A DNA stretch of 64,000 bases from a virus: the IMG/VR virus record IMGVR_UViG_3300045988_153285, positions 32,001 through 96,000 of that record, one strand, 5' to 3'. Position numbers and translations under genes: made by a program. This document shows, piece after piece, positions 6,447 through 59,109 of the stretch (position 1 is its first letter; each line of letters begins with the position of its first letter). Under the pieces are notes generated by a model that saw only the letters and a program-made list of their open reading frames with translations, was not told the DNA's origin and made no database searches.

Positions 6447-6498
6447 ATTATAAAAATTAACAAAAAAGTTTGACAAATAACTACTTATAATATATAAT
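6447..6498 (+). promoter_or_regulatory. dispersed motif + sigma-A type promoter
   Basis: ATTATAAAAATTAACAAAA, TTGACA 6470-6475, 17-nt spacer, TATAAT 6493-6498. Confidence 0.65.
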
Positions 6499-6538
6499 AA
6501 TAGTATAGTAATTAATAAATCAATTGGAGGAGTTAACA

Positions 6539-6751
6539 ATGACAAATAATCAAATTGAATTAAAAGTGCAAGAATTAACGAACACATATTACAGCTATTC
6601 ACAATTAGAGGACTACTTAATAAATTCTGCTGATGATATAGGGTACAACGATAAAAATATTTATTTATCAAATGGTTGGGAAGAAATAGAAATAAATTTT
6701 AAATACACATTAACCGAAGATTATGACGTTATAATCCATTCTATAAATTAA
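6539..6751 (+). CDS. hypothetical protein
   Basis: ORF-track 6524..6751 trimmed to ATG 6539 after GGAGGAG SD. Confidence 0.6.
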   Translation: MTNNQIELKVQELTNTYYSYSQLEDYLINSADDIGYNDKNIYLSNGWEEIEINFKYTLTEDYDVIIHSIN

Positions 6752-6773
6752 CAAAGTAAAAGAGGATAGAACA

Positions 6774-7049
6774 ATGAATAAATTATTATTAACAATAAGA
6801 TCTAAAAGAGATTATCACAATATCAACAAGCTACTAACTAAATACATCAAGACGCAAGACAATAGTATTATAGATAAGATAATGGCTACTGTAATAGCGA
6901 CAACAGCCCAATATAAAGCTTATAGCTTAGAAGGTATAAATTATTTATATAATACGTTAACAGTAGTTACAAATGCACTAAGTAATAAATATAAGGCATT
7001 AGCTACACAATTACAAATACAATTCATGAACTTCATAATAAACTATTAA
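6774..7049 (+). CDS. hypothetical protein
   Basis: AGAGGA SD upstream; 91-aa ORF. Confidence 0.6.
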   Translation: MNKLLLTIRSKRDYHNINKLLTKYIKTQDNSIIDKIMATVIATTAQYKAYSLEGINYLYNTLTVVTNALSNKYKALATQLQIQFMNFIINY

Positions 7050-7072
7050 AATAATAAAGCGAGGTAATTAAA

Positions 7073-7444
7073 ATGGAAAGATTAATTAAAATCTTATTAA
7101 CAATATCAATTATATTAGGAGCTTTAATAACTACAGCAGCAATATCAACAATTAACTCAATAGATAGAACTGAAACAGGAATATCAATAAACTTTAATGA
7201 TGGATCTGGGTACTACATAGAAACAGCTAACAAAGAAGAAATACAAACAACTTTTGAAGTGACTAATGTATTATATGAATCAACTAATGATTTCTATTTA
7301 GAACCGAATGAAATTGCATTAATACTAAGCAATAATGATTATACAATAATCAATACAGAAACAAATAGAGGATATTATAATAATAAAAATGATATAGATA
7401 TTTCTACACTAAGTATAAACAATTATGGCATAAATATAGAATAA
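7073..7444 (+). CDS. hypothetical membrane-anchored or secreted protein
   Basis: GAGGT SD; N-terminal hydrophobic segment ILLTISIILGALITTAAIS. Confidence 0.65.
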   Translation: MERLIKILLTISIILGALITTAAISTINSIDRTETGISINFNDGSGYYIETANKEEIQTTFEVTNVLYESTNDFYLEPNEIALILSNNDYTIINTETNRGYYNNKNDIDISTLSINNYGINIE

Positions 7445-7450
7445 ATAACC

Positions 7451-7487
7451 AATAAATTATTGACTTATTCTGTAAAAGTAGTATAAT
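7451..7487 (+). promoter_or_regulatory. sigma-A type promoter
   Basis: TTGACT 7460-7465, 16-nt spacer, TATAAT 7482-7487. Confidence 0.55.
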
Positions 7488-7492
7488 AGAAT

Positions 7493-7510
7493 TATAAAAA
7501 TTAACAAAAT
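7493..7510 (+). repeat. dispersed motif copy (SD-proximal class, lies downstream of the -10)
   Basis: TATAAAAATTAACAAAAT followed by AAAGGAG and ATG 7527. Confidence 0.7.
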
Positions 7511-7526
7511 AAAGGAGTAAATAATT

Positions 7527-7834: not shown

Positions 7835-7852
7835 TATAAAAATTAACAAAAT
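7835..7852 (+). repeat. dispersed motif copy (SD-proximal class)
   Basis: TATAAAAATTAACAAAAT upstream of TAGGAGA SD and ATG 7880. Confidence 0.7.
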
Positions 7853-9355: not shown

Positions 9356-10330
9356 ATGAGAGAATTTAAAGTGAATAATTGGTTAGGGCTAACAAAAGAA
9401 GGAGAATATGTTACAATAGATCAAGTGACAGATATACATACAGATTACTATTGTCCATCATGCGGTGAAATTTTACATGGCAGAGCTTTAGAGTCTGAAT
9501 TAGTCGAAAGACATTTTTACCATTTACAAAATAATAACTTAGAAAGTTGCAACTGTGAACAAGCCTATAAAAGATATTGGAAAGATAAATTTATTTCAGT
9601 TGGTGAAATTATGACATTACCATTTTTAAACGAGATAACTTGTATTGCTAAAGAAATTGATCATAAGGTTAATAGTGATTTAACAGCAGATATTTACATA
9701 AAGTCATCTAATGATGATAATATAGTGATATTGTTTGAAGATAGTAAACAAGTTGAAAATAGTAATTTAAATTATACAATTTTTTATTTAAATTTTATGG
9801 AGCTAAAAAGAGATTTAACAAATATAAACGAGTGTTTAGTATTACTACATAGTGAACAAATTAACAAAATAAATATTGAATTTAAAAATAAAATCAATGA
9901 TATTGCAAGCATTTTTACAAGATTTTTAAAAATTGATTTTTCAGAATGTGCGGTTAATATAAATAAATGTGTAGGTATAAAAAAGGAATTTGAATTATTG
10001 GGTTATAAAGACGAGTGTATTATTATGGATTGTTTAATAGATTCTTTGAAAAAGAGAACAATAACTATTTGTAAATATAAAAATATAAACATAACAAAAG
10101 ATGAAGTAAAAGCGGTCGAATTTTTAATTAATAAATTAAGATCAATTACAAAGTACAATATATCTTTAGATGTAAAAATGTTAAAGTCTATGAAATACAA
10201 AATATATAATAAAGGTTATTATAATAATAGTTGGACTAAATCAGTTTATTTTGACTTAATAAAGCCAATAGGAGCAGAATTTAACTCATACATAAATAAA
10301 ATTGAAAATATTCTAAATAACAATGAATAA
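9356..10330 (+). CDS. CoiA-like competence/nuclease family protein (putative)
   Basis: YYCPSCGEIL..ERHFYHLQ matches the CoiA N-terminal Zn-ribbon + HF(A/Y)H pattern; ADIYIK..ILFEDSKQ resembles the nuclease core. Confidence 0.55.
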   Translation: MREFKVNNWLGLTKEGEYVTIDQVTDIHTDYYCPSCGEILHGRALESELVERHFYHLQNNNLESCNCEQAYKRYWKDKFISVGEIMTLPFLNEITCIAKEIDHKVNSDLTADIYIKSSNDDNIVILFEDSKQVENSNLNYTIFYLNFMELKRDLTNINECLVLLHSEQINKINIEFKNKINDIASIFTRFLKIDFSECAVNINKCVGIKKEFELLGYKDECIIMDCLIDSLKKRTITICKYKNINITKDEVKAVEFLINKLRSITKYNISLDVKMLKSMKYKIYNKGYYNNSWTKSVYFDLIKPIGAEFNSYINKIENILNNNE

Positions 10331-10380
10331 ATTAACAAAATTAAGTATGCAATATAAATATAAGTCTATAATATTCATAA

Positions 10381-10424: not shown

Positions 10425-10450
10425 ATTCTAATAAAAATTAACACAATCTA

Positions 10451-10499
10451 ATATAAATTAACAAAACAAATTGACAAAAGAATAAGTAAATGTTTTAAT
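10451..10499 (+). promoter_or_regulatory. dispersed motif + promoter driving the ORF-free region
   Basis: ATATAAATTAACAAAAC, TTGACA 10471-10476, TGTTTTAAT extended -10-like element at 10491-10499. Confidence 0.5.
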
Positions 10500-10505
10500 A
10501 TAATT

Positions 10506-10998
10506 AAAATTTAAAAATATTATTTTATATAAATTAATAAAAATATAGGAAGTCCTATAAGGCAACTGGAACACAGAAAAACAGTATAAATAAACTGTGG
10601 TTGGCCACCGACTAAAAAGAAGGCTCGGATATAAGTATTACTTACTATATGCTTATAACCGTCAAACGGGTACATATGACCGTTAAATAAATTATATGGG
10701 TTTGGTTAGCTTAGGTTAGAAATAACGGACTTATAATAAGCTTTAAAGCGTATTCTATGGGCTAAGAGTAGAATGTTAAAGTTATAAGATAACAAAGTAA
10801 GTAATATTACTAAGATACAATAGCGATATACAGTAGTATTTTTGTTTGCCTCGAAAAACAGGGGTAAACTATACCCAAAAATGTGTCCAAGCTCAACCAG
10901 TAGTATATAGCTTCGCTACCTAATTGCAAGTAAAAACTATATTTTATTTATATAAATTAATAAAACAAAGAAGAAGTTTAACGACTTCTTTTTATTTT
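10506..10998 (+). ncRNA. candidate structured non-coding RNA, class unknown
   Basis: About 0.45 kb without an ORF. G+C is visibly higher than in the flanks. A promoter lies upstream and an AAGAAGT/ACTTCTT hairpin + T-run terminator at 10971-10998. Several local hairpins, e.g. GGGTA-aacta-TACCC. Confidence 0.4.
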
Positions 10999-11426: not shown

Positions 11427-11476
11427 AATATAAATTAATAAAATAGGTTGACAAATATTAAATAAGTCATTATAAT
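11427..11476 (+). promoter_or_regulatory. dispersed motif + consensus sigma-A promoter
   Basis: AATATAAATTAATAAAAT, TTGACA 11448-11453, 17-nt spacer, TATAAT 11471-11476. Confidence 0.75.
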
Positions 11477-13339: not shown

Positions 13340-13341
13340 TT

Positions 13342-13361: not shown

Positions 13362-13373
13362 GAAAAATATTTT

Positions 13374-13423
13374 AATATAAATTAACAAAATATATTGACA
13401 AACGATTTATAAAGTAATATAAT
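13374..13423 (+). promoter_or_regulatory. dispersed motif + consensus sigma-A promoter
   Basis: AATATAAATTAACAAAAT, TTGACA 13395-13400, 17-nt spacer, TATAAT 13418-13423. Confidence 0.75.
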
Positions 13424-13940: not shown

Positions 13941-13976
13941 TAAAAGAGTTTGTTAGTATCTCATCAAAAACTAATT

Positions 13977-13993
13977 ATATAAATTAACAAAAT
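13977..13993 (+). repeat. dispersed motif copy (SD-proximal class)
   Basis: ATATAAATTAACAAAAT followed by AGAGGTGG and ATG 14006. Confidence 0.7.
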
Positions 13994-14760: not shown

Positions 14761-14780
14761 ATATAAAAATTAATAAAAAT
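14761..14780 (+). repeat. dispersed motif copy (SD-proximal class)
   Basis: ATATAAAAATTAATAAAAAT followed by TGAGGT and ATG 14794. Confidence 0.65.
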
Positions 14781-15584: not shown

Positions 15585-15635
15585 AATAAAAATTAACGAA
15601 ATGTGTTGACAACGATAAGAAGAATATGGTAATAT
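15585..15635 (+). promoter_or_regulatory. dispersed motif + promoter with extended -10
   Basis: AATAAAAATTAACGAAAT, TTGACA 15606-15611, TGGTAATAT at 15627-15635. Confidence 0.65.
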
Positions 15636-18021: not shown

Positions 18022-18071
18022 AATATAAATTAACAAAACTCATTGACTGAATTTGAAAAGTATGGTAATAT
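18022..18071 (+). promoter_or_regulatory. dispersed motif + promoter
   Basis: AATATAAATTAACAAAAC, TTGACT 18043-18048, 17-nt spacer, TGGTAATAT. Confidence 0.7.
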
Positions 18072-19054: not shown

Positions 19055-19067
19055 GGTTTTCCTACTC
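19049..19067. terminator. bidirectional hairpin between convergent genes
   Basis: GAGTAGG / CCTACTC stem overlapping both stop codons. Confidence 0.5.
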
Positions 19068-19367
19068 TTCTAATAAAAACATGTGAGAACAACCTTTATT
19101 AATATGATTTTTACGGCAAGTCTTTCGTAACTCCTTCGTGGGCATAATAACACAATTATTACAATTGTATTGAATTATTTCACTAGGACAGGTTTTTAAG
19201 TTTTTACAAACTTCAATAAATCTGTCACGTTCATTAGATCCACGATATCTGAAATTATTTGTTTCTAATCTACTTATGTAAGTTTGAGATACTTTTGATT
19301 TAATAGCTAGTTCATCTTGTGTAAGTTTATTTTTCGTCCTATGTTCTTTTAAATTTAATTTTATCAT
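19062..19367 (-). CDS. XRE-family HTH repressor with Cys-rich C-terminus
   Basis: ORF-track 19062..19478 trimmed to MIKLNLKEHRTKNKLTQDELAIKSKVSQTYISRLE (HTH_3 pattern) with an AAGGAA SD; C-terminal CPSE..CNNC..C..C. Confidence 0.7.
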   Translation of the reverse strand: MIKLNLKEHRTKNKLTQDELAIKSKVSQTYISRLETNNFRYRGSNERDRFIEVCKNLKTCPSEIIQYNCNNCVIMPTKELRKTCRKNHINKGCSHMFLLEE

Positions 19368-19575
19368 TCTTATTCCTTTCTTAATATTTTTATTATATTT
19401 AATAATATTAAAAAATGAAAGAAAAACAAAGCAATACAAATACAAAAAATGAAGAAATATGGAAGAAATAAACGACAAATATTACTATACGGAATAAAAA
19501 TGTGAGAAAAATGTTATATAATGTTATTGTAGACAAATGGTTGCCTCATTTGATATAATAGCAATAAGAAAAGAG

Positions 19576-19589
19576 AGAACATGTGTTCT
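19576..19589. promoter_or_regulatory. candidate operator (inverted repeat AGAACA-tg-TGTTCT)
   Basis: Lies between the TGATATAAT extended -10 (19551-19559) and the SD of the 19609 gene, in the divergent repressor region. Confidence 0.45.
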
Positions 19590-19608: not shown

Positions 19609-19821
19609 ATGGGAGAATTAAGTTTATTAGACTTAAAGGTATTATTAATAGAAAAGGAGGTATTCGATATTGAGAGAAATGGAGAAAAAATGTTTGATGT
19701 TGGCTCAGATGAATTATGGGAAGAAATACATAAAGAAAAAATTATAAAAGCCGAGTTTTTCGGAGATGAAAGTATAGTATACATAAAGTTACAAAGCAAT
19801 GAATTAATATTATTGTTGTAG
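19609..19821 (+). CDS. hypothetical protein (first rightward gene of the switch region)
   Basis: AAGGGG SD; 70 aa. Confidence 0.55.
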   Translation: MGELSLLDLKVLLIEKEVFDIERNGEKMFDVGSDELWEEIHKEKIIKAEFFGDESIVYIKLQSNELILLL

Positions 19822-19851
19822 AATAAGCACAGTTAAGTGCTAACATGTAAG

Positions 19852-19866
19852 TAAAATTAACGAAAT
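19852..19866 (+). repeat. dispersed motif copy (variant)
   Basis: TAAAATTAACGAAAT. Confidence 0.5.
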
Positions 19867-19978: not shown

Positions 19979-21319
19979 ATGGAAAGTTTAGAAAAATTAA
20001 AAGAGAGAATATTAGAATCTGTAGAAGATAATATTAACAATAAAAAATTATTAAAAGAGTTGAGAGAGGAATTTATAAAGAAAAAATTACCTTCAGCCAT
20101 ACCAAACCAATTGTTTAGTGAGTCTATAGATGAAGATCACTTAGATAAAAATGTATTGATTGCTATAACAAAAGTATTTAAGAATGAATTAGACTCTGAA
20201 AAATTTAAACTATCTAATTACTTTAGTGAAGGTGAAATATTTAGCTACAACAATGAGATAGAAGTTAAAGAAAAAATAGATTATGTATTGTTTAAAGGAA
20301 TCAGACAGATAGATGGCAAGAACTTTTTAGGTGTTATTGATGGTAAGCAAGCAGTTGAAATGAGAAAAAATTCACTATATTCCTATAATAAGTTATTTCA
20401 ACGTGCGCCTAAGGTGGTCAGAACATCTTCTGGAAGAACTATAAAGAAAATTGATGCGAATAAAGAAAATATATTAGATATGGAAAAAGAGTTTTCAGAA
20501 GAAAAAATGACACCAACATCTATTCATTTTGCTATATTAGTTAATAATACGGCAGGAATAAGCGAAAACTTTAAATTTAAAAAAATGTATGAAAATATAG
20601 GTGATATGTGGATTAAGCCGAACTTTGATTTTGAATCTGAAACTTATTTACCATTAATGTGTGTTGATGGGTGGCATAGATTAACAGCTATGTGCAATGC
20701 AGTTGAAAAAGCTGAAGCAGAAGGAAAAACAATAAAGGCTGAATTAGGATGTTTTGTTCATATTTTTGATAATGAAGCAGCTATTAGACACTTTATAGTT
20801 AGTACATTTAAACGCTGTACGACTAATCTAGATTATTTAAATGCAATTACTCCTAATGATGACAATATATTTATAGATGAATTTATAAAAGAATGCAAAT
20901 GGTTAAATGGACATACAGCATTAACTAAGCAAGAAATGAAATTAGAAAATAATTATACTGAAAAAAGAATATTAATAGATTCATTTAAGAAAACTAATAT
21001 AGAGATGAATGATGATCTAAAGAACACAATAAGTCGAGAAAAAGTGGCAAAAGTAATCGATGAAACATTAGATTATGTATTAAAAGAATTATATGATAAC
21101 AATTTAGAAAAAATGATTAATACTATTTATTTGAATAGAAATATATTTAAAATGTATATAAAGTTTGCAGCAGAAGTTAGAGATAAAAAATATGGAATGG
21201 ATATTTATAACCTGATTCAGTATATAGAAAATAATTGCGAAAAAATTACAAACACATTTAATGAAAAGTATATAGCAGATAGTAGTATAGATTTAATTCT
21301 GAGCGAGGTGATTAAATAA
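19979..21319 (+). CDS. ParB/Srx-fold protein with DGQHR-like motif (DndB-like)
   Basis: LMCVDGWHRLTAM resembles the DGQHR signature of DndB/DGQHR-domain proteins; AGGAG SD. Confidence 0.5.
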   Translation: MESLEKLKERILESVEDNINNKKLLKELREEFIKKKLPSAIPNQLFSESIDEDHLDKNVLIAITKVFKNELDSEKFKLSNYFSEGEIFSYNNEIEVKEKIDYVLFKGIRQIDGKNFLGVIDGKQAVEMRKNSLYSYNKLFQRAPKVVRTSSGRTIKKIDANKENILDMEKEFSEEKMTPTSIHFAILVNNTAGISENFKFKKMYENIGDMWIKPNFDFESETYLPLMCVDGWHRLTAMCNAVEKAEAEGKTIKAELGCFVHIFDNEAAIRHFIVSTFKRCTTNLDYLNAITPNDDNIFIDEFIKECKWLNGHTALTKQEMKLENNYTEKRILIDSFKKTNIEMNDDLKNTISREKVAKVIDETLDYVLKELYDNNLEKMINTIYLNRNIFKMYIKFAAEVRDKKYGMDIYNLIQYIENNCEKITNTFNEKYIADSSIDLILSEVIK

Positions 21320-22461
21320 TGAAGACTTTTGAGGAATTAATAAAGAGCGAAAGAAATAAATTGGAAAATAAAAATTTAAAATTTGATGAGTACGAGAACA
21401 ATAAGATAAACTGGTTAAACGATGATGAGAATAACGGATATATAGCAGAAAAAACAAAGATAACTTATTATAGATTGTTAGATGTGCATGTGCATAGTTC
21501 GGAAATAGCTAATAACAAAGATTTAAGAAAATTTACAAGTGTAGAAATAGAAAACCTAGTTAAAGGAGCAATAACTAATAGTAGTACAACTAAACGTGCT
21601 ATATTTGCAGCTATAAATAATTATATGATATATAACGTTGAAAGAGGATTTATAAGCTACAATCCATGTGACTCAATACCAACAACTGATTTATTTGAAG
21701 TAAATAATAAAGCATTAAAAGAACAATACATGCCGTTAGATGAGTTCTATGCATATGTAGATGAATTATCTGCTGATAATGTTGAAAAAATGGTATATGT
21801 ACTAATTAGATACGGTGTACCAGTAAGTGATGTACCTAATGTCAAATGGGAAGATTTGAATGAAGAAGAAATGGTATTAACAACTATTGTTAAGAAAAAA
21901 GCAGTGTCATTACCTATAGATGAAGATTTTATAAGAAAAGCAAGGTTGTGTAGGGCATGTTCAGAGTATGAAGATGGTGGCTATATGATAAAAACAGTAG
22001 ATGGAAGACTTTCTTCTGTAAGTAGAATATATGGAATAATTGATAGGGTTAGTAAAGCTAGCGAAGTTGCAAGACCAGATATGGGAATGTTATTTAAAAA
22101 TAGAAGATATGATCTCGCATTAGAAATTTATGAAGATGAAGGACAAATAGAATCAAACGATCTAAAAGAAATATTAGATATATTAGGTTTATCAAGTGGA
22201 AATTCTAGTTTAACTACATTTAGAAAAGAATTAGAAAATATCTTTGGTTTAGAAGTTAAAACAAAAAACAAAAGAGCTATTGATGTTATAGATATTAATA
22301 CAGGTGAAATAATAAAGACTTATGAATCTATTAGAAATGTGGTAAAAGATAGCAAAGAAACTTTCGGATTCTATATAGATAAGAGTGTTGTTGGGAAAAC
22401 ATGCAAAGGTGAAAGAGAAGGCATGAGAGGATTAACATTTAGATATTCAGAGCAGGGGTAA
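21319..22461 (+). CDS. tyrosine-recombinase-like DNA-binding protein, probably catalytically inactive, with C-terminal NUMOD-like tail
   Basis: Start overlaps upstream stop. SAM-like N-domain (..TTKRAIFAAINNYMIYNVERGFISYNP). VLIRYGVPVSD keeps the Arg. LFKNRRY replaces H-x-x-R and LGLSSGNSSLTTF has Phe where Tyr is expected. Confidence 0.45.
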   Translation: MKTFEELIKSERNKLENKNLKFDEYENNKINWLNDDENNGYIAEKTKITYYRLLDVHVHSSEIANNKDLRKFTSVEIENLVKGAITNSSTTKRAIFAAINNYMIYNVERGFISYNPCDSIPTTDLFEVNNKALKEQYMPLDEFYAYVDELSADNVEKMVYVLIRYGVPVSDVPNVKWEDLNEEEMVLTTIVKKKAVSLPIDEDFIRKARLCRACSEYEDGGYMIKTVDGRLSSVSRIYGIIDRVSKASEVARPDMGMLFKNRRYDLALEIYEDEGQIESNDLKEILDILGLSSGNSSLTTFRKELENIFGLEVKTKNKRAIDVIDINTGEIIKTYESIRNVVKDSKETFGFYIDKSVVGKTCKGEREGMRGLTFRYSEQG

Positions 22462-22482: not shown

Positions 22483-22543
22483 AATATAAATTAATAAAAT
22501 TTGAGAGAAAAGTGTTTACTTTTATTTCAAACTATGATATTAT
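22483..22543 (+). promoter_or_regulatory. dispersed motif + weaker promoter
   Basis: AATATAAATTAATAAAAT, TTTACT 22515-22520, TGATATTAT extended -10. Confidence 0.5.
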
Positions 22544-24247: not shown

Positions 24248-24298
24248 AATATAAATTAACAAAAATGATTGACAACAATTAGAAAGTTATGGTAATAT
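24248..24298 (+). promoter_or_regulatory. dispersed motif + promoter
   Basis: AATATAAATTAACAAAAAT, TTGACA 24269-24274, TGGTAATAT extended -10. Confidence 0.7.
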
Positions 24299-26392: not shown

Positions 26393-27161
26393 ATGCAAAT
26401 AAATTTGATTAAAGGTGATTGTTTAGAAAAGATGAAAGATATATCTGATAAGAGTATAGATATGATTTTATGCGATTTACCATATGGGACAACTAAAAAT
26501 AAATGGGACTCAATCATTCCTTTAGATAAGCTGTGGGAACAATATAATAGAGTTGTTAAAGATAATGGAGCGATAATATTGTTTGCACAAACTCCATTTG
26601 ATAAAGTTTTAGGATATAGCAATTTAAAAATGTTAAAATATGAATGGATATGGGAAAAGACTTCGGCCACTGGTTATTTAAACGCCAAAAAGATGCCGAT
26701 GAAAGCCCATGAGAACATATTGGTATTTTATAAAAAATTACCTACATATAATCCACAAAAGACTACTGGACACAAAAGAAAAGTGAGTAAAGCAGAACAT
26801 AAAATTAATTGTGTTAAAACAACTAATTATGGAGTTCATGATTTGACTACATATGATAGCACAGAAAGATATCCAAGAAGTGTACAAGTTTTTAAAACTG
26901 ATAAACAAAAAGAGGCTTTACACCCCACTCAAAAAACCAGTAGAGTTATTAGAGTATCTAATTAAGACTTATACCAACAAAAATGAAACTGTACTGGATA
27001 ACACAATGGGTTCAGGATCTACAGGCGTAGCTTGTGTAAATACAAAAAGAAACTTTATAGGCATTGAATTAGAGGACGATTATTTTGATATAGCAAAAAA
27101 CAGAATTGATACATATATAGAAGATAATAAAATAGAAAATATTGAATTAAATATAAATTAA
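26393..27161 (+). pseudogene. beta-class N4/N6 DNA methyltransferase split by a +1 frameshift in an A6 run
   Basis: DLPYG (motif IV) then HPTQK|PVELLEYLI and MGSGSTG (motif I). The two ORF-track pieces 26393..26965 and 26853..27161 join if one A of 26931-26936 is removed. Confidence 0.75.
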
Positions 27162-27167
27162 TAAAAT
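27150..27167 (+). repeat. dispersed motif copy overlapping a stop codon
   Basis: AATATAAATTAATAAAAT encodes the ..NIN* end of the methyltransferase. Confidence 0.7.
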
Positions 27168-29774: not shown

Positions 29775-29783
29775 AATAATTAT

Positions 29784-29832
29784 ATATAAATTAATAAAAT
29801 AAATTGACAACTCATTTCCGAAATGTTATCAT
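29784..29832 (+). promoter_or_regulatory. dispersed motif + promoter of the sigma-factor gene
   Basis: ATATAAATTAATAAAAT, TTGACA 29804-29809, TGTTATCAT extended -10. Confidence 0.65.
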
Positions 29833-30535: not shown

Positions 30536-30541
30536 CAAAAT
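30524..30541 (+). repeat. dispersed motif copy overlapping a stop codon
   Basis: AATATAAATTAACAAAAT encodes the ..NIN* end of the sigma-factor gene. Confidence 0.7.
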
Positions 30542-30869: not shown

Positions 30870-30887
30870 TATAAAAATTAACAAAAT
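30870..30887 (+). repeat. dispersed motif copy (SD-proximal class)
   Basis: TATAAAAATTAACAAAAT followed by AAAGGAG and ATG 30902. Confidence 0.7.
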
Positions 30888-35849: not shown

Positions 35850-36960
35850 TGTATTCGTAGATAATGGGTTATTTGTGTTAGCATACTATCTAGATAAGGA
35901 AATAGAGAATATAACAGAACAAGATATATTTGATAGTATAGATATGATGTGTGAAAAGATAAATGAATTTACTGGTTGTGAAAAGTATTCAAATTTAAAA
36001 TCTATGATGTTTGCAAATTCAGCTTTGACACAACCTAATTCATCAAAGAAAGTAAATGACTTTTTAAATGACTTTTATAATTCTAAAGGCGAAGAAACTT
36101 GTTGTACTTGTGGAAATAAAACAGCAAATATAATTAATGGAGATTTAAATAGAAGTTATCTACCAAATAAAGTAGCACATACATTTTATAATTTCTCTAA
36201 CAATCTACAGGGTGTAAATGTATGTGGAATATGTTCTATACTTACAATGTTTAGTATATTAAATGCTAGAGTATATGGATTGGCTTACTTATATAATAGC
36301 GATAATGATGACTTTATGTATGACTATACATATGAACGTCAAGAAGAGAATGAAAGAGATATATTATCAGAAGCAAAGAAAAGTAAAGAAAAGATCAATA
36401 GTTTAAATACAGTTGAGCAGTTGATGAATAATACTAAGCTATATGATGGATATATACAAATATATAAATTCAACAATTCAGGACAAAACCAAGACATAGA
36501 AATACAAGATATTAATTCTGAAAGTGTTAAGCTATTATCCAATATAGTTAAATCAGGTATGTTAAATGAATTTAAACAATTTGGCTTAATGTACAATCTA
36601 ATCATAGGCAATTTAAGAAACGTATATCTTAGTAAAATAACAAAAGATGATGAAATGATATGCAGCAAAGAATTATTTGAGATGTTAAATAGAGAGGTAA
36701 ATATTTTGAGTAGTGAATTAAAGGAAGTTATAATAAAAATAGCCGATAGGTTAAAGAATGAAGATATAGTTAAGATAAGAAAAACATTAAAATTAATAAA
36801 AACATTTAAAGACTTTGAAGGGTTTATTGTTAACCTAGCTGAAGATTATAAAGATAAATATGATGACAATTTGTATACAGTTGACGAGTATATGCTATTA
36901 GATAATAAATTAAAATATAACCAAATTAAAAATTTAATGATAGTAAGCTTGATGCAATAA
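35833..36960 (+). CDS. cas8: Cas8b-like large subunit (short, 375 aa)
   Basis: Position between cas6 and cas7; CCTCGNK..CGICS Zn-finger as in the TM1802/Cas8b family; helical C-terminus. Confidence 0.55.
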   Translation: MNRTYDVFVDNGLFVLAYYLDKEIENITEQDIFDSIDMMCEKINEFTGCEKYSNLKSMMFANSALTQPNSSKKVNDFLNDFYNSKGEETCCTCGNKTANIINGDLNRSYLPNKVAHTFYNFSNNLQGVNVCGICSILTMFSILNARVYGLAYLYNSDNDDFMYDYTYERQEENERDILSEAKKSKEKINSLNTVEQLMNNTKLYDGYIQIYKFNNSGQNQDIEIQDINSESVKLLSNIVKSGMLNEFKQFGLMYNLIIGNLRNVYLSKITKDDEMICSKELFEMLNREVNILSSELKEVIIKIADRLKNEDIVKIRKTLKLIKTFKDFEGFIVNLAEDYKDKYDDNLYTVDEYMLLDNKLKYNQIKNLMIVSLMQ

Positions 36961-36974
36961 TAAATTAATAAAAT
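36956..36974 (+). repeat. dispersed motif copy (variant) inside the cas operon
   Basis: AATAATAAATTAATAAAAT overlapping the cas8 stop, upstream of the cas7 SD. Confidence 0.55.
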
Positions 36975-40737: not shown

Positions 40738-40787
40738 AATATAAATTAATAAAATAGATTGACAAATTTAAATAAGTAATATATAAT
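40738..40787 (+). promoter_or_regulatory. dispersed motif + consensus sigma-A promoter just after cas3
   Basis: AATATAAATTAATAAAAT, TTGACA 40759-40764, 17-nt spacer, TATAAT 40782-40787. Confidence 0.75.
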
Positions 40788-44385: not shown

Positions 44386-44397
44386 AATTTACGATTT

Positions 44398-44414
44398 ATA
44401 TAAATTAATATAAT
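44398..44414 (+). repeat. dispersed motif copy (variant, SD-proximal)
   Basis: ATATAAATTAATATAAT followed by AAAGGAG and ATG 44432. Confidence 0.6.
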
Positions 44415-44853: not shown

Positions 44854-44903
44854 AATATAAATTAACAAAATTGGTTGACAAGTTCTTTTATATGATATAT
44901 AAT
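44854..44903 (+). promoter_or_regulatory. dispersed motif + consensus sigma-A promoter of the replication module
   Basis: AATATAAATTAACAAAAT, TTGACA 44875-44880, 17-nt spacer, TATAAT 44898-44903. Confidence 0.75.
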
Positions 44904-45945: not shown

Positions 45946-45951
45946 CAATAC

Positions 45952-45991
45952 ATATAAATTAACAAAATAAGGGTGTTTAATAAACACCCTT
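45952..45991 (+). repeat. dispersed motif copy followed by a hairpin
   Basis: ATATAAATTAACAAAAT then AAGGGTG / CACCCTT stem. Confidence 0.65.
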
Positions 45992-50302: not shown

Positions 50303-52045
50303 ATGAATTTTAAAATTGAAAAAAGAAATAAATTAAACATAGGGTTCGGAAATGTATTAGAATCATTGTTAAAAGTTAGAGGTGTTGAAGATGTAAATAA
50401 ATTTCTAAATTTAACAGATGATGTTATAGAGGATATTAATAATTATGATAACATTGAAGTAGCTTCCCATATATTACTTGAACATTTAAAATGTAATAGT
50501 AAAATTGCAATAATAGTTGATAATGATGGTGATGGTTTTTCTAGTGCAGCTTTATTATATAATTACATAAAACGAATAAAACCTTCAATTAAATTAGAGT
50601 ATTTAATTCATAGCAATAAGGCTCATGGTTTAACTGAAGAGATGATGGAAAATATAAGAGCGGGAAATTATAATTTATTATTTATACCTGATGCTGGTAG
50701 TGGAAATATACAGCAACATAAGATATTGAAAGAAAAACTAGCTATGGATATTATAGTATTAGATCATCACCAATGCAATAAATATTCTCCATATGCTTGT
50801 GTTGTAAATAATCAAATGTCTAAAAATGTGAGGAATAAATCAATCACAGGAGTTGGAGTCACATATAAGTTTTGCAAGTATATTGACAATATACTGAATT
50901 TAAATGTAGCAGATGATTTTTTAGACTTATTAGCATATGGTATGGTTAGTGATAGTGCTGATTTAAGAGAATTGGAAAGTAGATATTTAGTATTGGAAGG
51001 ATTGAATAGAATTCAAGATGGTGTAAATTCAAATGAACTTTTAAAGAAACTATATAAATCTAAATCATATTCGATGAATAATAAATGTACAATAAGTGGA
51101 ATGGCTTTTTACATGTGTCCTGCTATAAATTGTATAATACGTGGAGGAGATTTAGAGATAAAGACAATATTATTCAAGGCATTTATAGGTTCAGATGAAA
51201 TATTTAAAGATAAAATTAGAGGTAAAGGTGAAGTTGAATTATCAGTTGAAGATTATATATTAAGAGTTTATACAAAATTAAAAAAGGTTCAAGATAAAGC
51301 TGCGGAAGAAGGAGTTGAGTTGATGAAAAATCAAATTAATCAATTTAACTTAAATAATAGTGAAATTATTATTGTCAATGGAACTGAAATAGAAAATAAA
51401 ACTTATAATAGATTAATAGTTAATAAATTATGCAGCGCTTATAATAAACATATACTTCTATTAAGTGAAACTGGAAGTTCACTATCTGGTAGTGGAACTG
51501 GAGCAAAAAATAAAGAGATTTCTGATTTTAGAAAATGGTGCGAATTAACTGGATTATTTAATTATTGTGAAGGACACCCTTCTGCATTTGGATGTCAAAT
51601 TCCAACATATAATATAAATAAATTATACGAATTGATATCAACAATTCCTTCAAGTGATGTATTAGTATATAACGTGGATGAAATATTTACAGAGAAATCT
51701 TTAAATAAAGCTACTGTATCATTTATAGGTAGCTATGATTATATATGGGGTAATAAATTAGATGAACCTATATTTGCAATAGAAGATATTATTGTTGACT
51801 CTAATAACATCAAGTTAATGGGAAAAAATAAAAATACTATAAAAATAATACATAATGGAATTGAGTTTATAAAGTTCAAGTCATCTGAAGATGAGTATAA
51901 TAATATAATGAAAAATAAACATAATATTTTTACAATAGTAGGAAAATTTAAAGTTAATGAATATTGTGGTAATACTACACCACAAGTATTAATTGAAGAT
52001 TATAAATATAAAGCTACAGAAGTAAAACCAAAATTTATATTTTAA
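50303..52045 (+). CDS. RecJ-like DHH-family phosphoesterase / ssDNA exonuclease
   Basis: IIVDNDGDGFSS and IVLDHHQ (DHH motifs). Confidence 0.75.
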   Translation: MNFKIEKRNKLNIGFGNVLESLLKVRGVEDVNKFLNLTDDVIEDINNYDNIEVASHILLEHLKCNSKIAIIVDNDGDGFSSAALLYNYIKRIKPSIKLEYLIHSNKAHGLTEEMMENIRAGNYNLLFIPDAGSGNIQQHKILKEKLAMDIIVLDHHQCNKYSPYACVVNNQMSKNVRNKSITGVGVTYKFCKYIDNILNLNVADDFLDLLAYGMVSDSADLRELESRYLVLEGLNRIQDGVNSNELLKKLYKSKSYSMNNKCTISGMAFYMCPAINCIIRGGDLEIKTILFKAFIGSDEIFKDKIRGKGEVELSVEDYILRVYTKLKKVQDKAAEEGVELMKNQINQFNLNNSEIIIVNGTEIENKTYNRLIVNKLCSAYNKHILLLSETGSSLSGSGTGAKNKEISDFRKWCELTGLFNYCEGHPSAFGCQIPTYNINKLYELISTIPSSDVLVYNVDEIFTEKSLNKATVSFIGSYDYIWGNKLDEPIFAIEDIIVDSNNIKLMGKNKNTIKIIHNGIEFIKFKSSEDEYNNIMKNKHNIFTIVGKFKVNEYCGNTTPQVLIEDYKYKATEVKPKFIF

Positions 52046-52094
52046 ATATAAATTAATAAAATATATTGACAAATAAATTGAATTTTGTTAACTT
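52045..52094 (+). promoter_or_regulatory. dispersed motif + promoter upstream of the polymerase gene
   Basis: AATATAAATTAATAAAAT overlapping the upstream stop, TTGACA 52066-52071, weak TGTTAACTT -10. Confidence 0.55.
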
Positions 52095-54644: not shown

Positions 54645-56876
54645 ATGAATAAAGAAAATATTGTAAAATGTATAGTTGAGTTAGGGAAGGTATTCTTCCC
54701 TAAAGGTAAATCTCATATAAAATCAGGTGAATTTGGTATATTTGTCGCTGATATAATTGAACCAATAGATAATTGTGAAAATATATATAAGAACATCAAA
54801 TTAAAAGGTACTTGCTGTGAAATACAATATGGTGAAAAATATAAAGTATCTTGTAAATTATGTGATGTAAATGAGAAGTTTGGGAATACATATGAAATAG
54901 TATATATAAATAGAATTGTTGATTTAAAAGATGAAGTCAAGCAAAAGAATTTTTTAATGTCAATATTAAATGAGAATGTTGTAGCAAGATTGTACGATGA
55001 ATGTGAAAATGTCATAGATTTATTAGATAATGAAGATGTAGAAAGTTTAAGTAAGATTAAAGGAATTGGTGTAAAATCAGCAATGAGATTAATTGAGAAA
55101 TATAAAGATTGTAAGGATTACAGTGAAGTATATTCTGAACTAGGCCATTTAGGTTTTACAAGTAACTTAATAAAGAGATTGGTAGATTATTATAAATCAC
55201 CAGATGTTGTAATTGATATAGTTAAAACTAATCCATATCAGTTAGTAAATGTAGATGGTATTGGATTTAAAAAGGCAGATGAAATAGCAGCTAAAACTGG
55301 AATAAAAGGAGCTAATCCAAACAGAATTAAAGGTTGCATATTGTATATATTAAATCAATCAGGTGAAATAGGTAAAAGTTTTTTACATTATAGTGATTTA
55401 TTGAAGCAATTAAGCGATAATATTGGGTTTATTGAACAGGATGTTATAAATAAGGTTGCTAGTGATTTAATATCAAAGAATGAAGTTTATTTAAGTGAAA
55501 ATGGGGAGTACATTGGTTTAAAAAAATATTATAATTTAGAAAATAAAATTAAAAATGAATTATTAAGAATAGCTAATAGTGAAAGTAAAATGAAAATAAA
55601 CAATATTGAAGAAACAATACAATTAACAGAAAAAGATCAAGGATTTGATTTCACAGAAGAACAAAGAAATGCAATTATTGAATTTACAAAAGCAAATGTA
55701 TTAGCATTAACTGGAGGTGCTGGTTGTGGTAAAACTAGTGTGTCTAAGGGTATGATGGATTTGATAAAGAAATATTCAATATGTGCATGCGCTTTAAGTG
55801 GAAAAGCTTCTGTTAGAATTACTGAGGCTACTGGAATAGAAGCAAGCACAATACATAGATTATTAGGATTCCAACATGGAGAGTTTGTGTACAATAAAAA
55901 GAATCAATTAATTGCTGATGCAGTATTTTTAGATGAAGCTACTATGGTCAACGGTGAATTATTTTTAAGTCTATTAGAGGCAATTCCAAATGGTTGTAAA
56001 TTAGTAATGATGGGTGACGTGCAACAATTAACACCTATTGGAAGTTGTCAAGTATTCGCAGATGTATTGAGTTCAAAATCCATAACTTCATGTAAATTAA
56101 CAAAACCTCATAGACAAGCTATGAAATCAGGAATTATTCCATTATCAATGAATATAATAAATCAAAATAATATATTTGATTCAACATTTGAAGGTAGAAC
56201 TATATTAGGTGAGTTAAAAGACATGGAATTGAATATATATAAATCGAATGAATCGCATTTAAATGAAGTAGTTGAGTGTTTCATGAGGGAGTATAACAAG
56301 ACAAATGATTTAATGGAAACCCAAATAATAGCACCAATGAGAAATAGAGGAGACTTCTCAACATATGCAATTAACATTGAAGTTCAAAAAAGAATAAATC
56401 CCATTAATTCAAATAGAAAACATATAACTGTGTCGCTAGATAAGGAAAGATTTTATACTATTCAAGTAGGGGATAAAGTTATAAATACTAAAAATAATTA
56501 TAAATCGAAAAATGCAGATGGTATTGAAGTTCCCGTTTTTAATGGAAATATGGGTATTGTTAAAGATATAGATGGTGAGTTAATTACAGTAGACTTTATA
56601 GGTATTGGTGAATTAATATTAGATGCAAAAGGCGCAAAGAGTTTAGAGTTAGGCTATGCAATTACAATACATAAAAGTCAAGGTTCTGGATTTTCAACTG
56701 TAATTGGAGCTATAGACTCATCTGCATATGTTTTATTAAATGCTGAATTATTATATACATTGGTAACTAGAGCTAAAAAGTATTGTGTGTTAATTGGTAA
56801 AAATACAGCAATCAGAACTGCGATCAAAAAAAGAGAAATAAAAAATAAACAAACATATTTAAATAATATTTTATAG
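54645..56876 (+). CDS. RecD-like SF1B DNA helicase
   Basis: LTGGAGCGKTS, VFLDEATMV, GYAITIHKSQGSGF; HhH-like N-terminal region. Confidence 0.85.
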   Translation: MNKENIVKCIVELGKVFFPKGKSHIKSGEFGIFVADIIEPIDNCENIYKNIKLKGTCCEIQYGEKYKVSCKLCDVNEKFGNTYEIVYINRIVDLKDEVKQKNFLMSILNENVVARLYDECENVIDLLDNEDVESLSKIKGIGVKSAMRLIEKYKDCKDYSEVYSELGHLGFTSNLIKRLVDYYKSPDVVIDIVKTNPYQLVNVDGIGFKKADEIAAKTGIKGANPNRIKGCILYILNQSGEIGKSFLHYSDLLKQLSDNIGFIEQDVINKVASDLISKNEVYLSENGEYIGLKKYYNLENKIKNELLRIANSESKMKINNIEETIQLTEKDQGFDFTEEQRNAIIEFTKANVLALTGGAGCGKTSVSKGMMDLIKKYSICACALSGKASVRITEATGIEASTIHRLLGFQHGEFVYNKKNQLIADAVFLDEATMVNGELFLSLLEAIPNGCKLVMMGDVQQLTPIGSCQVFADVLSSKSITSCKLTKPHRQAMKSGIIPLSMNIINQNNIFDSTFEGRTILGELKDMELNIYKSNESHLNEVVECFMREYNKTNDLMETQIIAPMRNRGDFSTYAINIEVQKRINPINSNRKHITVSLDKERFYTIQVGDKVINTKNNYKSKNADGIEVPVFNGNMGIVKDIDGELITVDFIGIGELILDAKGAKSLELGYAITIHKSQGSGFSTVIGAIDSSAYVLLNAELLYTLVTRAKKYCVLIGKNTAIRTAIKKREIKNKQTYLNNIL

Positions 56877-56933
56877 TTAAATTTTCAAATAAAAGTCTAG
56901 TTTTATAAAAATTAAAATAATAGGAGTGATTAA

Positions 56934-57026
56934 ATGAAATATGTAATGAGTGATATACATGGTTGTTACGATGAATTTATAAATATGTTAGAGTTAATTA
57001 ACTTTAATGAAGGTGATGAATTATAA
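56934..57026 (+). pseudogene. N-terminal remnant of a calcineurin-like metallophosphoesterase
   Basis: [30 protein letters not shown] stops just before the expected GDxxDRG motif; AGGAG SD. Confidence 0.55.
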
Positions 57027-57040
57027 AAGGAGTGAATGAT

Positions 57041-58258
57041 ATGAGGAAAGTTTTCTTAGATAATTTACCTAAAAAAATGAGGATAGATAAAGAAATTATT
57101 GATTGGAAGGGTAGTATGGGAATCAAAGTACCGTTTATCTATGATGATATTGAAGGAGAAGTTGAGATTATTAACTATGATAATGGAATTTTAACTATAA
57201 AAAATTTATTGAATAATGAATTTTTTAAAATAAAAACTGATAAATTATCAAAATGTAAACTTGGGAAGATGCTAACGAAGTATACAAAAAACTTTAAATA
57301 TAACATCAATAACAATATTATAAGCGAAAATAGAGATTTAATCATAACCGATAGAGAATATAGGGAGAGAAAACATTCTAATGCAAACAGTATTATAAAT
57401 GATAAATACTATAAATATACATGTAATAAATGTGGTTGGACTGAGGGATGGATTGTAGAGGGAAGCTTAAGTAAGGGTGTTGGATGTTCTTGTTGCTACA
57501 ACAGATCTGCTGTTTTAGGCATAAATACAATATGGGATACTGATAGATGGATGTGTGATTTAGGTGTATCTGAAGAAGATGCAAGAAAATTTACTAAGTC
57601 TAGTGGGAAAAAGATAGAAGTTATATGTCCTGATTGCAAGAAAAGAAAATTGGTTTCGATTGATAAAATATACAAAAATAAATCCATAGGTTGTAGTTGT
57701 GGAGATGGAATTAGTTATCCTGAAAAATTTATAAATGATGCGCTAAATCAATTAAATGTTGAATTTCAAAGTCAATTAACAAAGACAACATTTGAATGGT
57801 GCGGAGACAAAAGATATGACTTTTATATACCAGAATATAATATGATAATTGAAACTCATGGCATACAACACTATGAAGATTGTAATTGGGGTAAAGCATG
57901 TGATATTCAAGAGAACGATAGAATTAAAAAGGAATTAGCAAAAGAAAATGGTATTGAGCATTACGTTGTTATAGATTGTAGATATAGTGAATTAGAATGG
58001 ATTAAGAATTCTATATTAAATAGTAAATTGGTAGATATGCTTAATTTATCTAAAATTGATTGGCTAAAGTGTGAAGAATTTGCACTGAAGAATATTGTCA
58101 GGGAAGTATGTGATTATTGGAATAATAAAGAGGAGTGGGAGACTACAACAACCATTGCAGAAAATAATGAATGGGGAATTAGAAGTGTTATTACAGTAAT
58201 AAAATATCTCAAAAAAGGAACAATCTTAGGATGGTGCAACTATAATCCTAAAAGATAA
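57041..58258 (+). CDS. putative homing endonuclease (zinc ribbons + Vsr/DUF559-like PD-(D/E)XK core)
   Basis: CNKCGW..CSCC, CPDCKK..CSCG; YDFYIPEYNMIIETHGIQHY nuclease-core pattern; sits where the phosphoesterase gene is truncated. Confidence 0.55.
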   Translation: MRKVFLDNLPKKMRIDKEIIDWKGSMGIKVPFIYDDIEGEVEIINYDNGILTIKNLLNNEFFKIKTDKLSKCKLGKMLTKYTKNFKYNINNNIISENRDLIITDREYRERKHSNANSIINDKYYKYTCNKCGWTEGWIVEGSLSKGVGCSCCYNRSAVLGINTIWDTDRWMCDLGVSEEDARKFTKSSGKKIEVICPDCKKRKLVSIDKIYKNKSIGCSCGDGISYPEKFINDALNQLNVEFQSQLTKTTFEWCGDKRYDFYIPEYNMIIETHGIQHYEDCNWGKACDIQENDRIKKELAKENGIEHYVVIDCRYSELEWIKNSILNSKLVDMLNLSKIDWLKCEEFALKNIVREVCDYWNNKEEWETTTTIAENNEWGIRSVITVIKYLKKGTILGWCNYNPKR

Positions 58259-58356
58259 TATAGTTCACTATGTTTTTTTGTGTATTTAAGAAAGCAAACG
58301 GTAAATTAGCTTGTTTGTGCTTAGATACTATGGAAGAATTTTATATCTAAATTCAA

Positions 58357-58384
58357 GGCAGCTTAACGGCTGTCTTTTCTTTTT
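58357..58384 (+). terminator. Rho-independent terminator
   Basis: GGCAGC / GCTGTC stem (one G-U), 6-nt loop, T-rich tail. Confidence 0.65.
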
Positions 58385-58393
58385 AAATTTTTT

Positions 58394-58443
58394 AATATAA
58401 ATTAATAAAATAGGTTGACAAAGGTATAATATGGGTATATAAT
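58394..58443 (+). promoter_or_regulatory. dispersed motif + consensus sigma-A promoter
   Basis: AATATAAATTAATAAAAT, TTGACA 58415-58420, 17-nt spacer, TATAAT 58438-58443. Confidence 0.75.
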
Positions 58444-58484
58444 TAAATCATCAAGTAAATAAAATAATAAATGAGGTGGTTAAT

Positions 58485-59096
58485 ATGGCAGAAAGAAATT
58501 ATACTTTAAGTGAATTAAAACTAATTGAAAAGGTAAAAGAAGAAAACACAACTTGTTATTATTGTGGTGATCCATTGAAATCTAAAAATAGAACAATAGA
58601 TCATAAAGTTCCAATAAGCAGAGGTGGACAAACTACATTAGACAATCTAGTAGTAAGCTGCAAAAGATGTAATGAAGAAAAGGGAATGATGAATGATGAA
58701 GAGTATTTAAGTTTCTTAGAAAAGTTTAGAAAATACATAGATGAAGATATTAACTTTAATGAATTAAAAGATATAAAGACTAAATACCAAGGAATATTAG
58801 ATAGGCACAAAGAATTATGTGAGAAGCATCGCTTGATAGGGTGTGAAGTTAGAAAAGTTCAAGATATAATAATGGTTATGAAGATGAATGCAGCAGATGG
58901 ATACATATTAGCAAGAGATTTACAAAAGTTATTAAATGAACAAAATGAAATTAAAAAGCAAAAAGAAAGTATAGCTAAATTAAGAGATATGGCTATAAAT
59001 CAAATAAATGAAATATCTAAGAATATGACGGCTTTAGCAGATACAGTAAGGAGCAATTACAGGAATGATGTAATAAGAAATATCAGATATAAATAA
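58485..59096 (+). CDS. HNH endonuclease with coiled-coil C-terminus
   Basis: CYYCG..IDHKVPISRGGQTTLDNLVVSCKRCNEEKG. Confidence 0.85.
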   Translation: MAERNYTLSELKLIEKVKEENTTCYYCGDPLKSKNRTIDHKVPISRGGQTTLDNLVVSCKRCNEEKGMMNDEEYLSFLEKFRKYIDEDINFNELKDIKTKYQGILDRHKELCEKHRLIGCEVRKVQDIIMVMKMNAADGYILARDLQKLLNEQNEIKKQKESIAKLRDMAINQINEISKNMTALADTVRSNYRNDVIRNIRYK

Positions 59097-59109
59097 AAAT
59101 TAACAAAAT
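59093..59109 (+). repeat. dispersed motif copy overlapping a stop codon (SD-proximal)
   Basis: ATAAAAATTAACAAAAT followed by AGAGGTG. Confidence 0.7.

Follow-up and report, generated by a model that had tools for sequence, protein, structure and literature searches.

Dispersed copies of an oriented A-tract motif as the probable operator set of an MrpR/SroF-type repressor in a Clostridium SPbeta-like phage

The window analysed here, 64,000 nucleotides (nt) of viral DNA corresponding to positions 32,001 to 96,000 of IMG/VR record IMGVR_UViG_3300045988_153285, carries more than 30 copies of an asymmetric A-tract motif, all on the + strand. We assign a probability of about 0.7 to the reading that these copies are the operator set of a master repressor of the SroF/MrpR type, the equivalent, in an SPbeta-like phage of Clostridium, of the SroF boxes of phage phi3T and of the SPBRE sites of phage SPbeta (the latter reportedly described by Lazarevic in 1999). 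The proposed reader is a 380-amino-acid (aa) integrase-fold protein encoded at 21319..22461 (+), and we infer, from sequence comparison and by analogy with these Bacillus phages, both that it binds the motif and that binding represses. A preliminary description of this DNA had advanced four explanations, namely a UP element with a second function, promoters of a phage-specific sigma factor or RNA polymerase, dispersed operators of one master regulator, and module-boundary recombination sequences; the third is the best supported, and the product of the gene at 21319 was the right candidate to name for binding tests.

Copy number, strand and shape of the motif

Matches to AATATAAATTAAYAAAAT with at most two mismatches number 32, all on the + strand, whereas dinucleotide-preserving shuffles average 1.26 and never exceed 5, and exact AAATTAAYRAAAY occurs 31 times, again only on the + strand (shuffle mean 0.74). 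With a position weight matrix (PWM) derived from the 32 copies and a cut-off score of at least 12, 37 sites were found on the + strand and 0 on the − strand (about 1.2 in block shuffles), extending from 6.4 to 59.1 kb of the window, i.e. over some 53 kb. The motif is thus confirmed as real and far above shuffle expectation, in agreement with the preliminary description, which had reported many same-strand copies, no reverse-strand copy and conservation beyond the effect of AT-richness. The positions that it gave were right to within 1–3 nt and the bulk of its copies was confirmed, but the copy at 26368 is only a degenerate one (AAAATTAACAAAGGAG), and others had been missed, for example those at 6740 and 31947 and the weak copies within genes, at 15086 and at 56089..56106 (+; PWM score 14.9), the latter inside the helicase/exonuclease V-like open reading frame (ORF) 54645–56876. 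Strong-scoring copies lie between genes or across stop codons.

The consensus, ATATAAATTAAYAAAAT (a further written form of the site is ATATAAATTAACAAAAT), is a single contiguous, sharply bounded, asymmetric block of 17–18 nt with two A-tracts and without dyad symmetry. Positions 6–12 (AAATTAA) and 16 are invariant, and ten copies are exact 18-mers. A second conserved block was looked for in the 20 nt upstream of the copies, and none was found. Conservation of the motif at orthologous sites was 97.6–97.9% vs 93–96%, in a comparison confined to near-identical regions, the only ones that could be aligned. Several other classes of repeated element were considered and rejected: iterons or packaging sites because the copies are scattered across 53 kb, Chi- or KOPS-like oriented oligomers because the motif is too long and strictly intergenic, ends of miniature inverted-repeat transposable elements or insertion sequences because inverted repeats are lacking and conservation spans no more than 18 nt, and a purely RNA-level element because many copies stand upstream of promoters.

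Two classes of sites

Thirteen copies (class 1) are followed, exactly 3 nt past the motif, by TTGACA or TTGACT, with a −10 hexamer 17–18 nt further on; these copies cover about −39 to −56. Fusion of such copies to host-type promoters, as originally proposed, was borne out for all of these, although not for the copy at 22483..22500, a perfect one that had been placed in the same class; what comes after it is a hairpin and, farther on, a promoter-like site, with no TTGACA at +3. The first copy in the window, 6449..6466 (score 17.9), lies where the strand switches and the early region begins, and precedes a promoter with a 12/12 consensus match (TTGACA 3 nt on, then 17 nt, then TATAAT). The next are 10450..10467 (22.0), 11427..11444 (an exact 18-mer) and 13374..13391 (exact), followed by 15585..15602 (18.6), which heads the PemK/MazF-like gene at 15678, 18022..18039 (22.0), which heads the Xer-like integrase gene at 18110, 24248..24265 (20.0) and 29783..29800 (20.3), which heads the weakly sigma-like gene at 29894. 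The remaining five, all exact, are 32741..32758, 40738..40755 (20 nt past the cas3 stop), 44854..44871 (heading the yorF-like replication module), 52045..52062 (adjoining the stop of the RecJ-like gene and heading the DNA polymerase gene) and 58394..58411. All intergenic + strand promoters with a perfect TTGACA carry the motif at the fixed 3-nt spacing, and the 12/12 consensus promoters within 6–26 kb, three in number, all have it. Because the spacer sequences of the class 1 promoters are unlike one another, the 18-mer is held by selection and does not reflect recent cassette duplication.

About ten copies (class 2) end 1–3 nt before a Shine-Dalgarno (SD) sequence, with the start codon 13–18 nt after the motif, so that the earlier placement of such copies just upstream of an SD and start codon holds. 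Among them are 7493..7510 (20.7; SD at +1), which coincides with the predicted start site of the promoter TTGACT-16-TATAAT at 7460–7487, 7835..7852 (20.7), 13976..13993 (22.4; SD at +1, start at +13), 14762..14779 (15.8), 30870..30887 (20.7), 44397..44414 (16.5) and the last copy in the window, 59092..59109 (21.0), which also runs across the stop of an HNH ORF.

Overlap with stop codons is frequent. Five ORFs, ending at 6751, 24920, 27161, 30535 and 33679, stop at motif positions 10–12; the shared ending ..NIN* had been noticed for the third to fifth of these, to which the first two are now added. The copies concerned include 6740..6757 (14.0; across the stop of ORF 6524–6751, with the next start 17 nt downstream), 27150..27167 (exact; ORF 26853–27161), 30524..30541 (exact; ORF 29894–30535, and at the same time class 2 for ORF 30557) and 33668..33685 (14.1; ORF 33296–33679). 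The copy at 10324..10341 (15.3) likewise runs across the stop of ORF 9356–10330, and that at 31947..31964 (15.3) lies at the stop of the methylase ORF 31058–31948.

At three copies the motif is followed by a hairpin: 10949..10966 (19.6), where a hairpin and T-run were identified by eye, 22483..22500, and 45951..45968 (20.9), where the hairpin is rich in G+C. The order terminator-motif-promoter occurs twice, at 13340–13423 (terminator 13340–13363) and at 22449–22500; in the latter case the motif lies 22 nt past the stop of the proposed repressor gene, after its terminator (22449–22471), a position identical in relatives L028 and L035. A weak copy at 19849..19866 (11.2) precedes the yopQ-like/mrpR-like operon and its weak promoter, and the position of this copy is kept in L028. 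Of the others, 10430..10447 (18.6) stands in tandem with the class 1 copy at 10450, 2 nt apart, 10526..10543 (17.6) is intergenic, 34397..34414 (22.0) heads the type I-B cas operon, as stated earlier (cas5 starts at 34466), and the weaker 36957..36974 (13.1) marks the junction of ORF 35833–36960, which has no Pfam match, and cas7.

The candidate binder

The protein encoded at 21319..22461 (ORF21319) is, judging from profile comparisons and its predicted fold, a member of the MrpR/SroF/YopR family. It matches Pfam MrpR_N_CB (PF22822), which is present in 43 of 43 homologues, the distant ones adding MrpR_C_cat. Searched against PDB sequences, the family profile matches only SPbeta YopR/MrpR (E = 3e-4), and hhalign against SPbeta YopR gives a probability of 91.7% (E = 8e-7, 242 columns), whereas hhalign against the phage's own Xer-like integrase gave no match; tblastn against the phage collection gave no match either. 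For the AlphaFold2 (AF2) model (predicted local distance difference test score, pLDDT, 89), the best Foldseek matches are MrpR (8a0a), YopR (8bj6/8bpz), phi3T SroF-DNA (9rd5) and SroF-Sar (9rgl), and true recombinases rank below. The gene directly follows a YopQ-like gene at 19979..21319 (+; tblastn against SPbeta yopQ, E = 1e-5; phrog_5732), an order shared with yopQ and yopR of SPbeta and phi3T.

About 60 extra C-terminal residues of ORF21319 (about 318–380; window 22270–22461), with the order strand-strand-helix-helix-strand, are missing from SPbeta MrpR and phi3T SroF and have no Pfam match. Foldseek weakly matches this part to the DNA-binding portion of I-HmuI, a homing endonuclease, a hint that a module for DNA binding has been added.

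Comparison with SPbeta, phi3T and P1

The window (26% G+C, with nearly all genes on the + strand from about 6.4 kb) is, by gene order and protein similarity, part of a distant SPbeta-like phage of Clostridium. Genes at 45016–54640 are collinear with SPbeta yorF-G-H-I-J-K(-L) at 30–37% amino-acid identity (tblastn), and the best annotated matches of the RecJ-like protein (YorK) are in Spbetaviruses; in megablast searches of phages and plasmids, no annotated sequence proved to be a close relative. By tblastn, no AimR homologue was detected in the 64-kb window, nor was an arbitrium module (aimR-aimP-aimX) seen; arbitrium marks a Bacillus subgroup, not the repressor family.

In SPbeta, ChAP-seq (chromatin affinity purification sequencing) of MrpR recovered ten bound promoter regions, all with SPBRE, from which MEME derived a 15-bp motif (Kohm et al. 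2023, PMC10516654). MrpR shifts SPBRE DNA in electrophoretic mobility shift assays, PaimR and PyosX fusions are repressed about five-fold, and the protein is monomeric, retains three of the seven catalytic residues and has no recombinase activity in vitro (PMC10516654). The phi3T protein SroF was solved on a 26-bp box, with one monomer encircling the DNA and reading 24 of 26 bp; the box is asymmetric, with two consecutive A-tracts, and sites occur genome-wide (Chmielowska et al., bioRxiv 10.1101/2025.11.27.690993). Induction of phi3T involves the small LexA-controlled antirepressor Sar, with YopT in SPbeta (bioRxiv 10.1101/2025.11.27.690993).

Mapping of the validated SPbeta boxes yielded 11, each oriented like the gene next to it, the single minus-strand copy at yonP included. 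They are located upstream of the −35 (aimR, yonT, yonX), in the spacer and −10 of TAGACA-17-TATAAT promoters, or before the SD (yonX-2, yopM, yopV). Similarly, the 50–100 kb part of phi3T contains 17 boxes, all in gene orientation, about six of which abut a −35-like hexamer (including that of the aimR promoter) and at least five an SD. Both position classes are therefore represented in these phages, and class 2 geometry is a family trait of sites whose binding in Bacillus phages is experimentally established.

The window thus resembles SPbeta in having an integrase-fold repressor gene after yopQ and an asymmetric A/T-rich motif that is dispersed over the early region, co-oriented with genes and placed at promoters or SDs; the repressor operon and the region of the late-transcription gene are guarded in both. 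However, the sequences are unrelated (about ACAAATACAAAWAATATGTATATA in SPbeta, as opposed to the window consensus), SPbeta has about 11 copies vs 32–37 in 53 kb of the window, several SPbeta copies form the spacer and −10 whereas window copies keep a rigid 3-nt gap before the −35, the window repressor is longer, and the host is Clostridium, with no aimR or yonO homologue seen in the window. The SroF box of phi3T (26 bp, CAGTAATTTTATTTTTATTCTTAATG) also differs from the motif in sequence; it shares with it the asymmetric two-A-tract design and the occurrence of copies in gene orientation abutting −35-like hexamers or SDs.

The C1 operators of the phage-plasmid P1 are asymmetric 17-bp sites. 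More than a dozen are scattered over the genome; both orientations occur, and overlap with promoters is common. The earlier analogy with them is apt insofar as one repressor would act at many dispersed asymmetric sites of about 17 bp, in separate operons rather than in one immunity region, but C1 has an unrelated fold and P1 belongs to an unrelated lineage, no P1 homology was seen, and the closest system is MrpR/SroF with SPBRE.

Motif and repressor across relatives

Close mosaic relatives were found in four IMG/VR contigs of 34–136 kb from one metagenome, and a Clostridium cuniculi contig is related, its repressor homologue being 92% identical; relatives referred to by name are IMG/VR 3300045988_144614, _158328 and _160574 and NZ_SMUS01000011.1. 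The order integrase, helix-turn-helix (HTH) gene on the − strand, small ORF, yopQ-like gene, mrpR-like gene is kept in loci L028–L032 and L035–L038 (L037 is incomplete: its integrase is truncated where the contig ends, and an additional ORF of 487 aa has been inserted). The window PWM is kept in relatives whose MrpR-like protein is 50–95% identical (L025–30, L034–36); at 65% repressor identity the motif drifts (AAATTAATRAA), with the 3-nt gap to the −35 unchanged. In the group with 39% repressor identity (L031, L032, L038), the window PWM had 0 matches in 21 kb despite conserved synteny. In this group two candidate operators were seen: AWATAAAATAAAW had 28 matches vs 11.6 ± 3.4, and AGAAAAAATTWTAT had 7 vs 0.9; both are A-rich and strand-specific and occur close to −35 hexamers and to SDs. 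Across the relatives, motif retention is not followed by the yopQ-like gene or by the integrase gene. De novo motif discovery in relatives (k-mer neighbourhood, expectation maximization) was swamped by SD and low-complexity signals in 25% G+C DNA and failed to recover SPBRE cleanly in the SPbeta control; PWM scans and anchored inspection were used instead.

One motif-plus-promoter copy in the opposite orientation was seen in each of three relatives, to the left of the window start (L013 11226, L003 4000, L019 14195). These reversed copies are co-oriented with leftward genes and recall the single reversed SPBRE at yonP-yonO in SPbeta. A PHROGs search of the genes 3' of the reversed copy in L013 returned no function, and a 496-aa protein there had no family match.

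A LexA-box-like palindrome and a candidate antirepressor

A LexA-box-like palindrome, GAACATGTGTTC (19577..19588, +), an exact match to the LexA type, lies between a promoter at 19530–19559 (TAGACA-18-TATAAT with TG, without the motif) and a 70-aa acidic ORF at 19609..19821 (+; ORF19609). Of 14 loci compared, 10 (the window and nine relatives) keep the LexA-type half-sites, with spacers that vary. The divergence of ORF19609 follows that of the MrpR-like protein, whereas that of the intervening yopQ-like gene does not. On the other side, a divergent HTH_3 protein is encoded at 19062..19478 (−), in the position of SPbeta yopS. The arrangement of a small gene behind a LexA box and beside a divergent HTH gene resembles that of the SroF-Sar-LexA system, although the window gene lies upstream of yopQ/mrpR and not downstream. 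By this context, ORF19609 is a candidate SOS-triggered, Sar-like antirepressor.

Weighing of alternative explanations

Several observations weigh against the operator assignment. ORF21319 is only about 16–19% identical to MrpR/SroF, and the assignment consists of that homology together with the architectural analogy; the conserved core, at 17–18 nt, falls short of the 24–26 bp of a SroF box. Immediately upstream of most class 2 copies no promoter can be recognised, and what would be blocked at them is therefore uncertain. The 37:0 strand bias is partly as expected for an A-rich site on an A-rich sense strand, where, by a base-composition estimate, an A-rich 18-mer arises about 20-fold more easily. 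ORF19609 matched neither Sar nor YopT in sequence or in fold; with one of five AF2 models confident, its predicted structure is unstable. In the hhalign register of the catalytic residues, R164 of ORF21319, which is invariant, stands at the first catalytic-arginine position (Arg-I), D171 at E144 and K192 at K169, with no His at His-I and the Tyr position outside the aligned region; the invariant R164 leaves room for residual recombinase activity. Finally, the HTH protein (19062) and ORF19609 co-vary with the motif as well as ORF21319 does, and the relatives therefore exclude some candidates, the HTH protein not among them, and cannot single out the binder.

That the motif is the operator of another phage DNA-binding protein, such as this HTH_3 protein or some other factor, is nevertheless unlikely. 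The HTH protein lies in the lysogeny module, has repressor-family matches and declines in identity to the window protein along with motif retention (100, 91, 88, 86, 57, 47, 33%). However, HTH_3 repressors are normally dimers on dyad sites, whereas the motif has no dyad and is strictly oriented. A monomeric reader of the SroF type accounts directly for an asymmetric, oriented A-tract site, which a dimeric HTH repressor would not, and in SPbeta the repressor is YopR/MrpR, not YopS (PMC10516654, PMC8612738). The position of the 13 class 1 copies, as well as their A-tracts, would suit a strong UP element, i.e. a site for the C-terminal domain of the RNA polymerase alpha subunit (alpha-CTD) that boosts host-type early promoters, the remaining copies being decayed or incidental. 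The 3' half of the motif, AAYAAAAT, resembles the A-rich proximal subsite of E. coli rrnB P1, and in a distant relative the −35 hexamers are preceded by a different A-rich motif. This account is quite improbable: about 20 high-scoring copies lack a downstream promoter and abut SDs, stop codons or terminators, and UP elements vary widely, whereas ten exact 18-mers occur here. The absence of the PWM from syntenic relatives with a diverged repressor points to a phage-specific reader, although the hosts may differ. The proposal of a UP element with a second function thus fits the class 1 position but leaves the SD-proximal copies and the exact conservation unexplained, and UP-element function is possible only as a secondary property of the motif.

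We give an equally low probability to a promoter of phage machinery, either the sigma-like protein of 29894 or a phage RNA polymerase, with class 1 sites as tandem phage/host promoters. The TATAAAT of the motif recalls promoters with a −10 element only, such as T4 late TATAAATA, the distance of 13–18 nt from class 2 copies to start codons fits short leaders, and ORF29894 shows weak similarity to sigma region 2 along with a C-terminal HTH. The proposal, which came with the sigma-like gene as its basis, is not supported: ORF29894 is weakly assigned as a sigma factor (Sigma70_r2, E = 0.14; PDB sigma-H, E = 0.003), the motif is one block rather than a bipartite −35/−10, several copies run straight into hairpins or terminators, and the genes headed by copies are early ones, among them the sigma-like gene itself and those of the repressor operon. 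Contig 160574 keeps the motif (L027: 12 matches in 21 kb), yet has segment 29810–33282, which holds the sigma-like gene, replaced; no close homologue of ORF29894 was found in 160574 or 144614, a search with partial contig coverage that would detect close relatives only. A YonO-like polymerase is absent from the window, and the phi3T boxes, which are proven repressor sites, share the SD-abutting geometry. The least probable of these explanations, and a very improbable one, is a module-boundary sequence driving gene shuffling, either by microhomology or as the site of a tyrosine-recombinase-fold protein, two of which are encoded. Mosaic breakpoints do lie within 30 nt of a copy more often than expected (18 of 102 vs 4.8 at random; among intergenic ones, 15 of 42 vs 8.3 ± 2.6), R164 is kept in ORF21319, and a one-gene cassette at 30527–30896 (ORF 30557–30793), bounded by the copies at 30524 and 30870, reappears in a different neighbourhood in contig 144614 (L010 3632–4001) and is, judging from the two contexts, a module exchange with ends at the motif. 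The association is a weak one: 84 of 102 breakpoints lie away from copies, and the enrichment is inflated because a conserved motif is an alignable island where BLAST alignments end. In addition, the inverted-repeat core of tyrosine-recombinase sites is lacking, an active site repeated directly over 30 times would lead to deletion of the genome, and MrpR has no recombinase activity in vitro (PMC10516654). The breakpoint association is probably a by-product of conserved microhomology.

Proposed mechanism and implications

If the motif is the operator set of an SroF/MrpR-type repressor, monomers of the 21319–22461 protein would, in the lysogen, occupy every asymmetric A-tract copy. At class 1 sites, a footprint of SroF size (24–26 bp) centred on −47 would reach the −35 hexamer, and the bound repressor would keep RNA polymerase (alpha-CTD, sigma region 4) off the near-consensus early promoters. 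At SD-proximal, stop-overlapping and post-terminator sites, it would act as a roadblock or block the start site, so that no read-through would occur in the 53-kb early region. The silenced set would include the replication genes, the methylases, the cas operon, the sigma-like gene and the repressor operon, with the weak 19849 copy providing autoregulation of the yopQ-like/mrpR-like operon. Upon induction, the repressor would be stripped by the SOS-controlled antirepressor ORF19609, as with Sar in the Bacillus phages. We infer both the roadblock role of the bound protein and the antirepressor role of ORF19609.

A further-reaching version of the operator proposal, which we consider rather unlikely, is that the strict sense-strand, SD-proximal placement, seen in the window and, by our mapping, in SPbeta and phi3T, does not simply follow from A-rich coding strands but reflects an undescribed orientation-dependent activity of SroF-type proteins, and that the 18-mer also serves as a UP element after stripping. 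Such an activity could be a polar block to elongating RNA polymerase or a second role on mRNA with the same sequence in its 5' untranslated region. In that case, the doubling as UP element would make about 13 near-consensus promoters, together with a CRISPR-Cas operon carried by the phage, switch in an all-or-none manner.

Integrase-fold master repressors with dispersed boxes have been shown in Bacillus and are so far undescribed in clostridial phages; the points of difference here are the unusually high site density, the rigid coupling to every consensus early promoter and the longer repressor. If the operator assignment is correct, the monomeric integrase-fold repressor system would reach beyond Bacillus Spbetaviruses, into large uncultivated Clostridium phages seemingly without arbitrium in the region seen. 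The regulon would be dense, with 30 or more sites, every consensus early promoter guarded and a type I-B CRISPR-Cas system among the silenced genes. A new operator, together with a repressor so distant from the solved ones, may be useful for understanding how the fold reads A-tract DNA, and the motif could serve as an annotation key to early promoters and operon boundaries in this phage group.

Other genes of the window

Besides the Xer-like integrase, the window encodes a Bro/Ant protein and a type I-B-like cas operon. The gene at 15678–16268 encodes a 196-aa protein with a PemK/MazF-like toxin domain and lies upstream of the integrase in most relatives examined. Arbitrium phages work via the host MazEF system, which makes this gene notable. 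Between 26393 and 31948, five DNA methyltransferase genes are interspersed with motif copies and the sigma-like gene: N6_N4 (26393), C5 (27221), D12 Dam-like (28248), Eco57I-like (29127) and C5 (31058).

A CRISPR array at 38128–38750, between cas7 and cas3, has 30-nt repeats, GTATTAATTATAATATGGTTATTTATAAAY, of which six are perfect and three degenerate. Two spacers, at 38224–38258 and 38289–38323, match IMGVR_UViG_3300045988_175147 (L001 4180–4214 and 10920–10954) at 35/35 and 33/35 positions, respectively. This record is a viral contig from the same metagenome as the window, and the phage-borne type I-B system appears, from these matches, to target a co-occurring phage.

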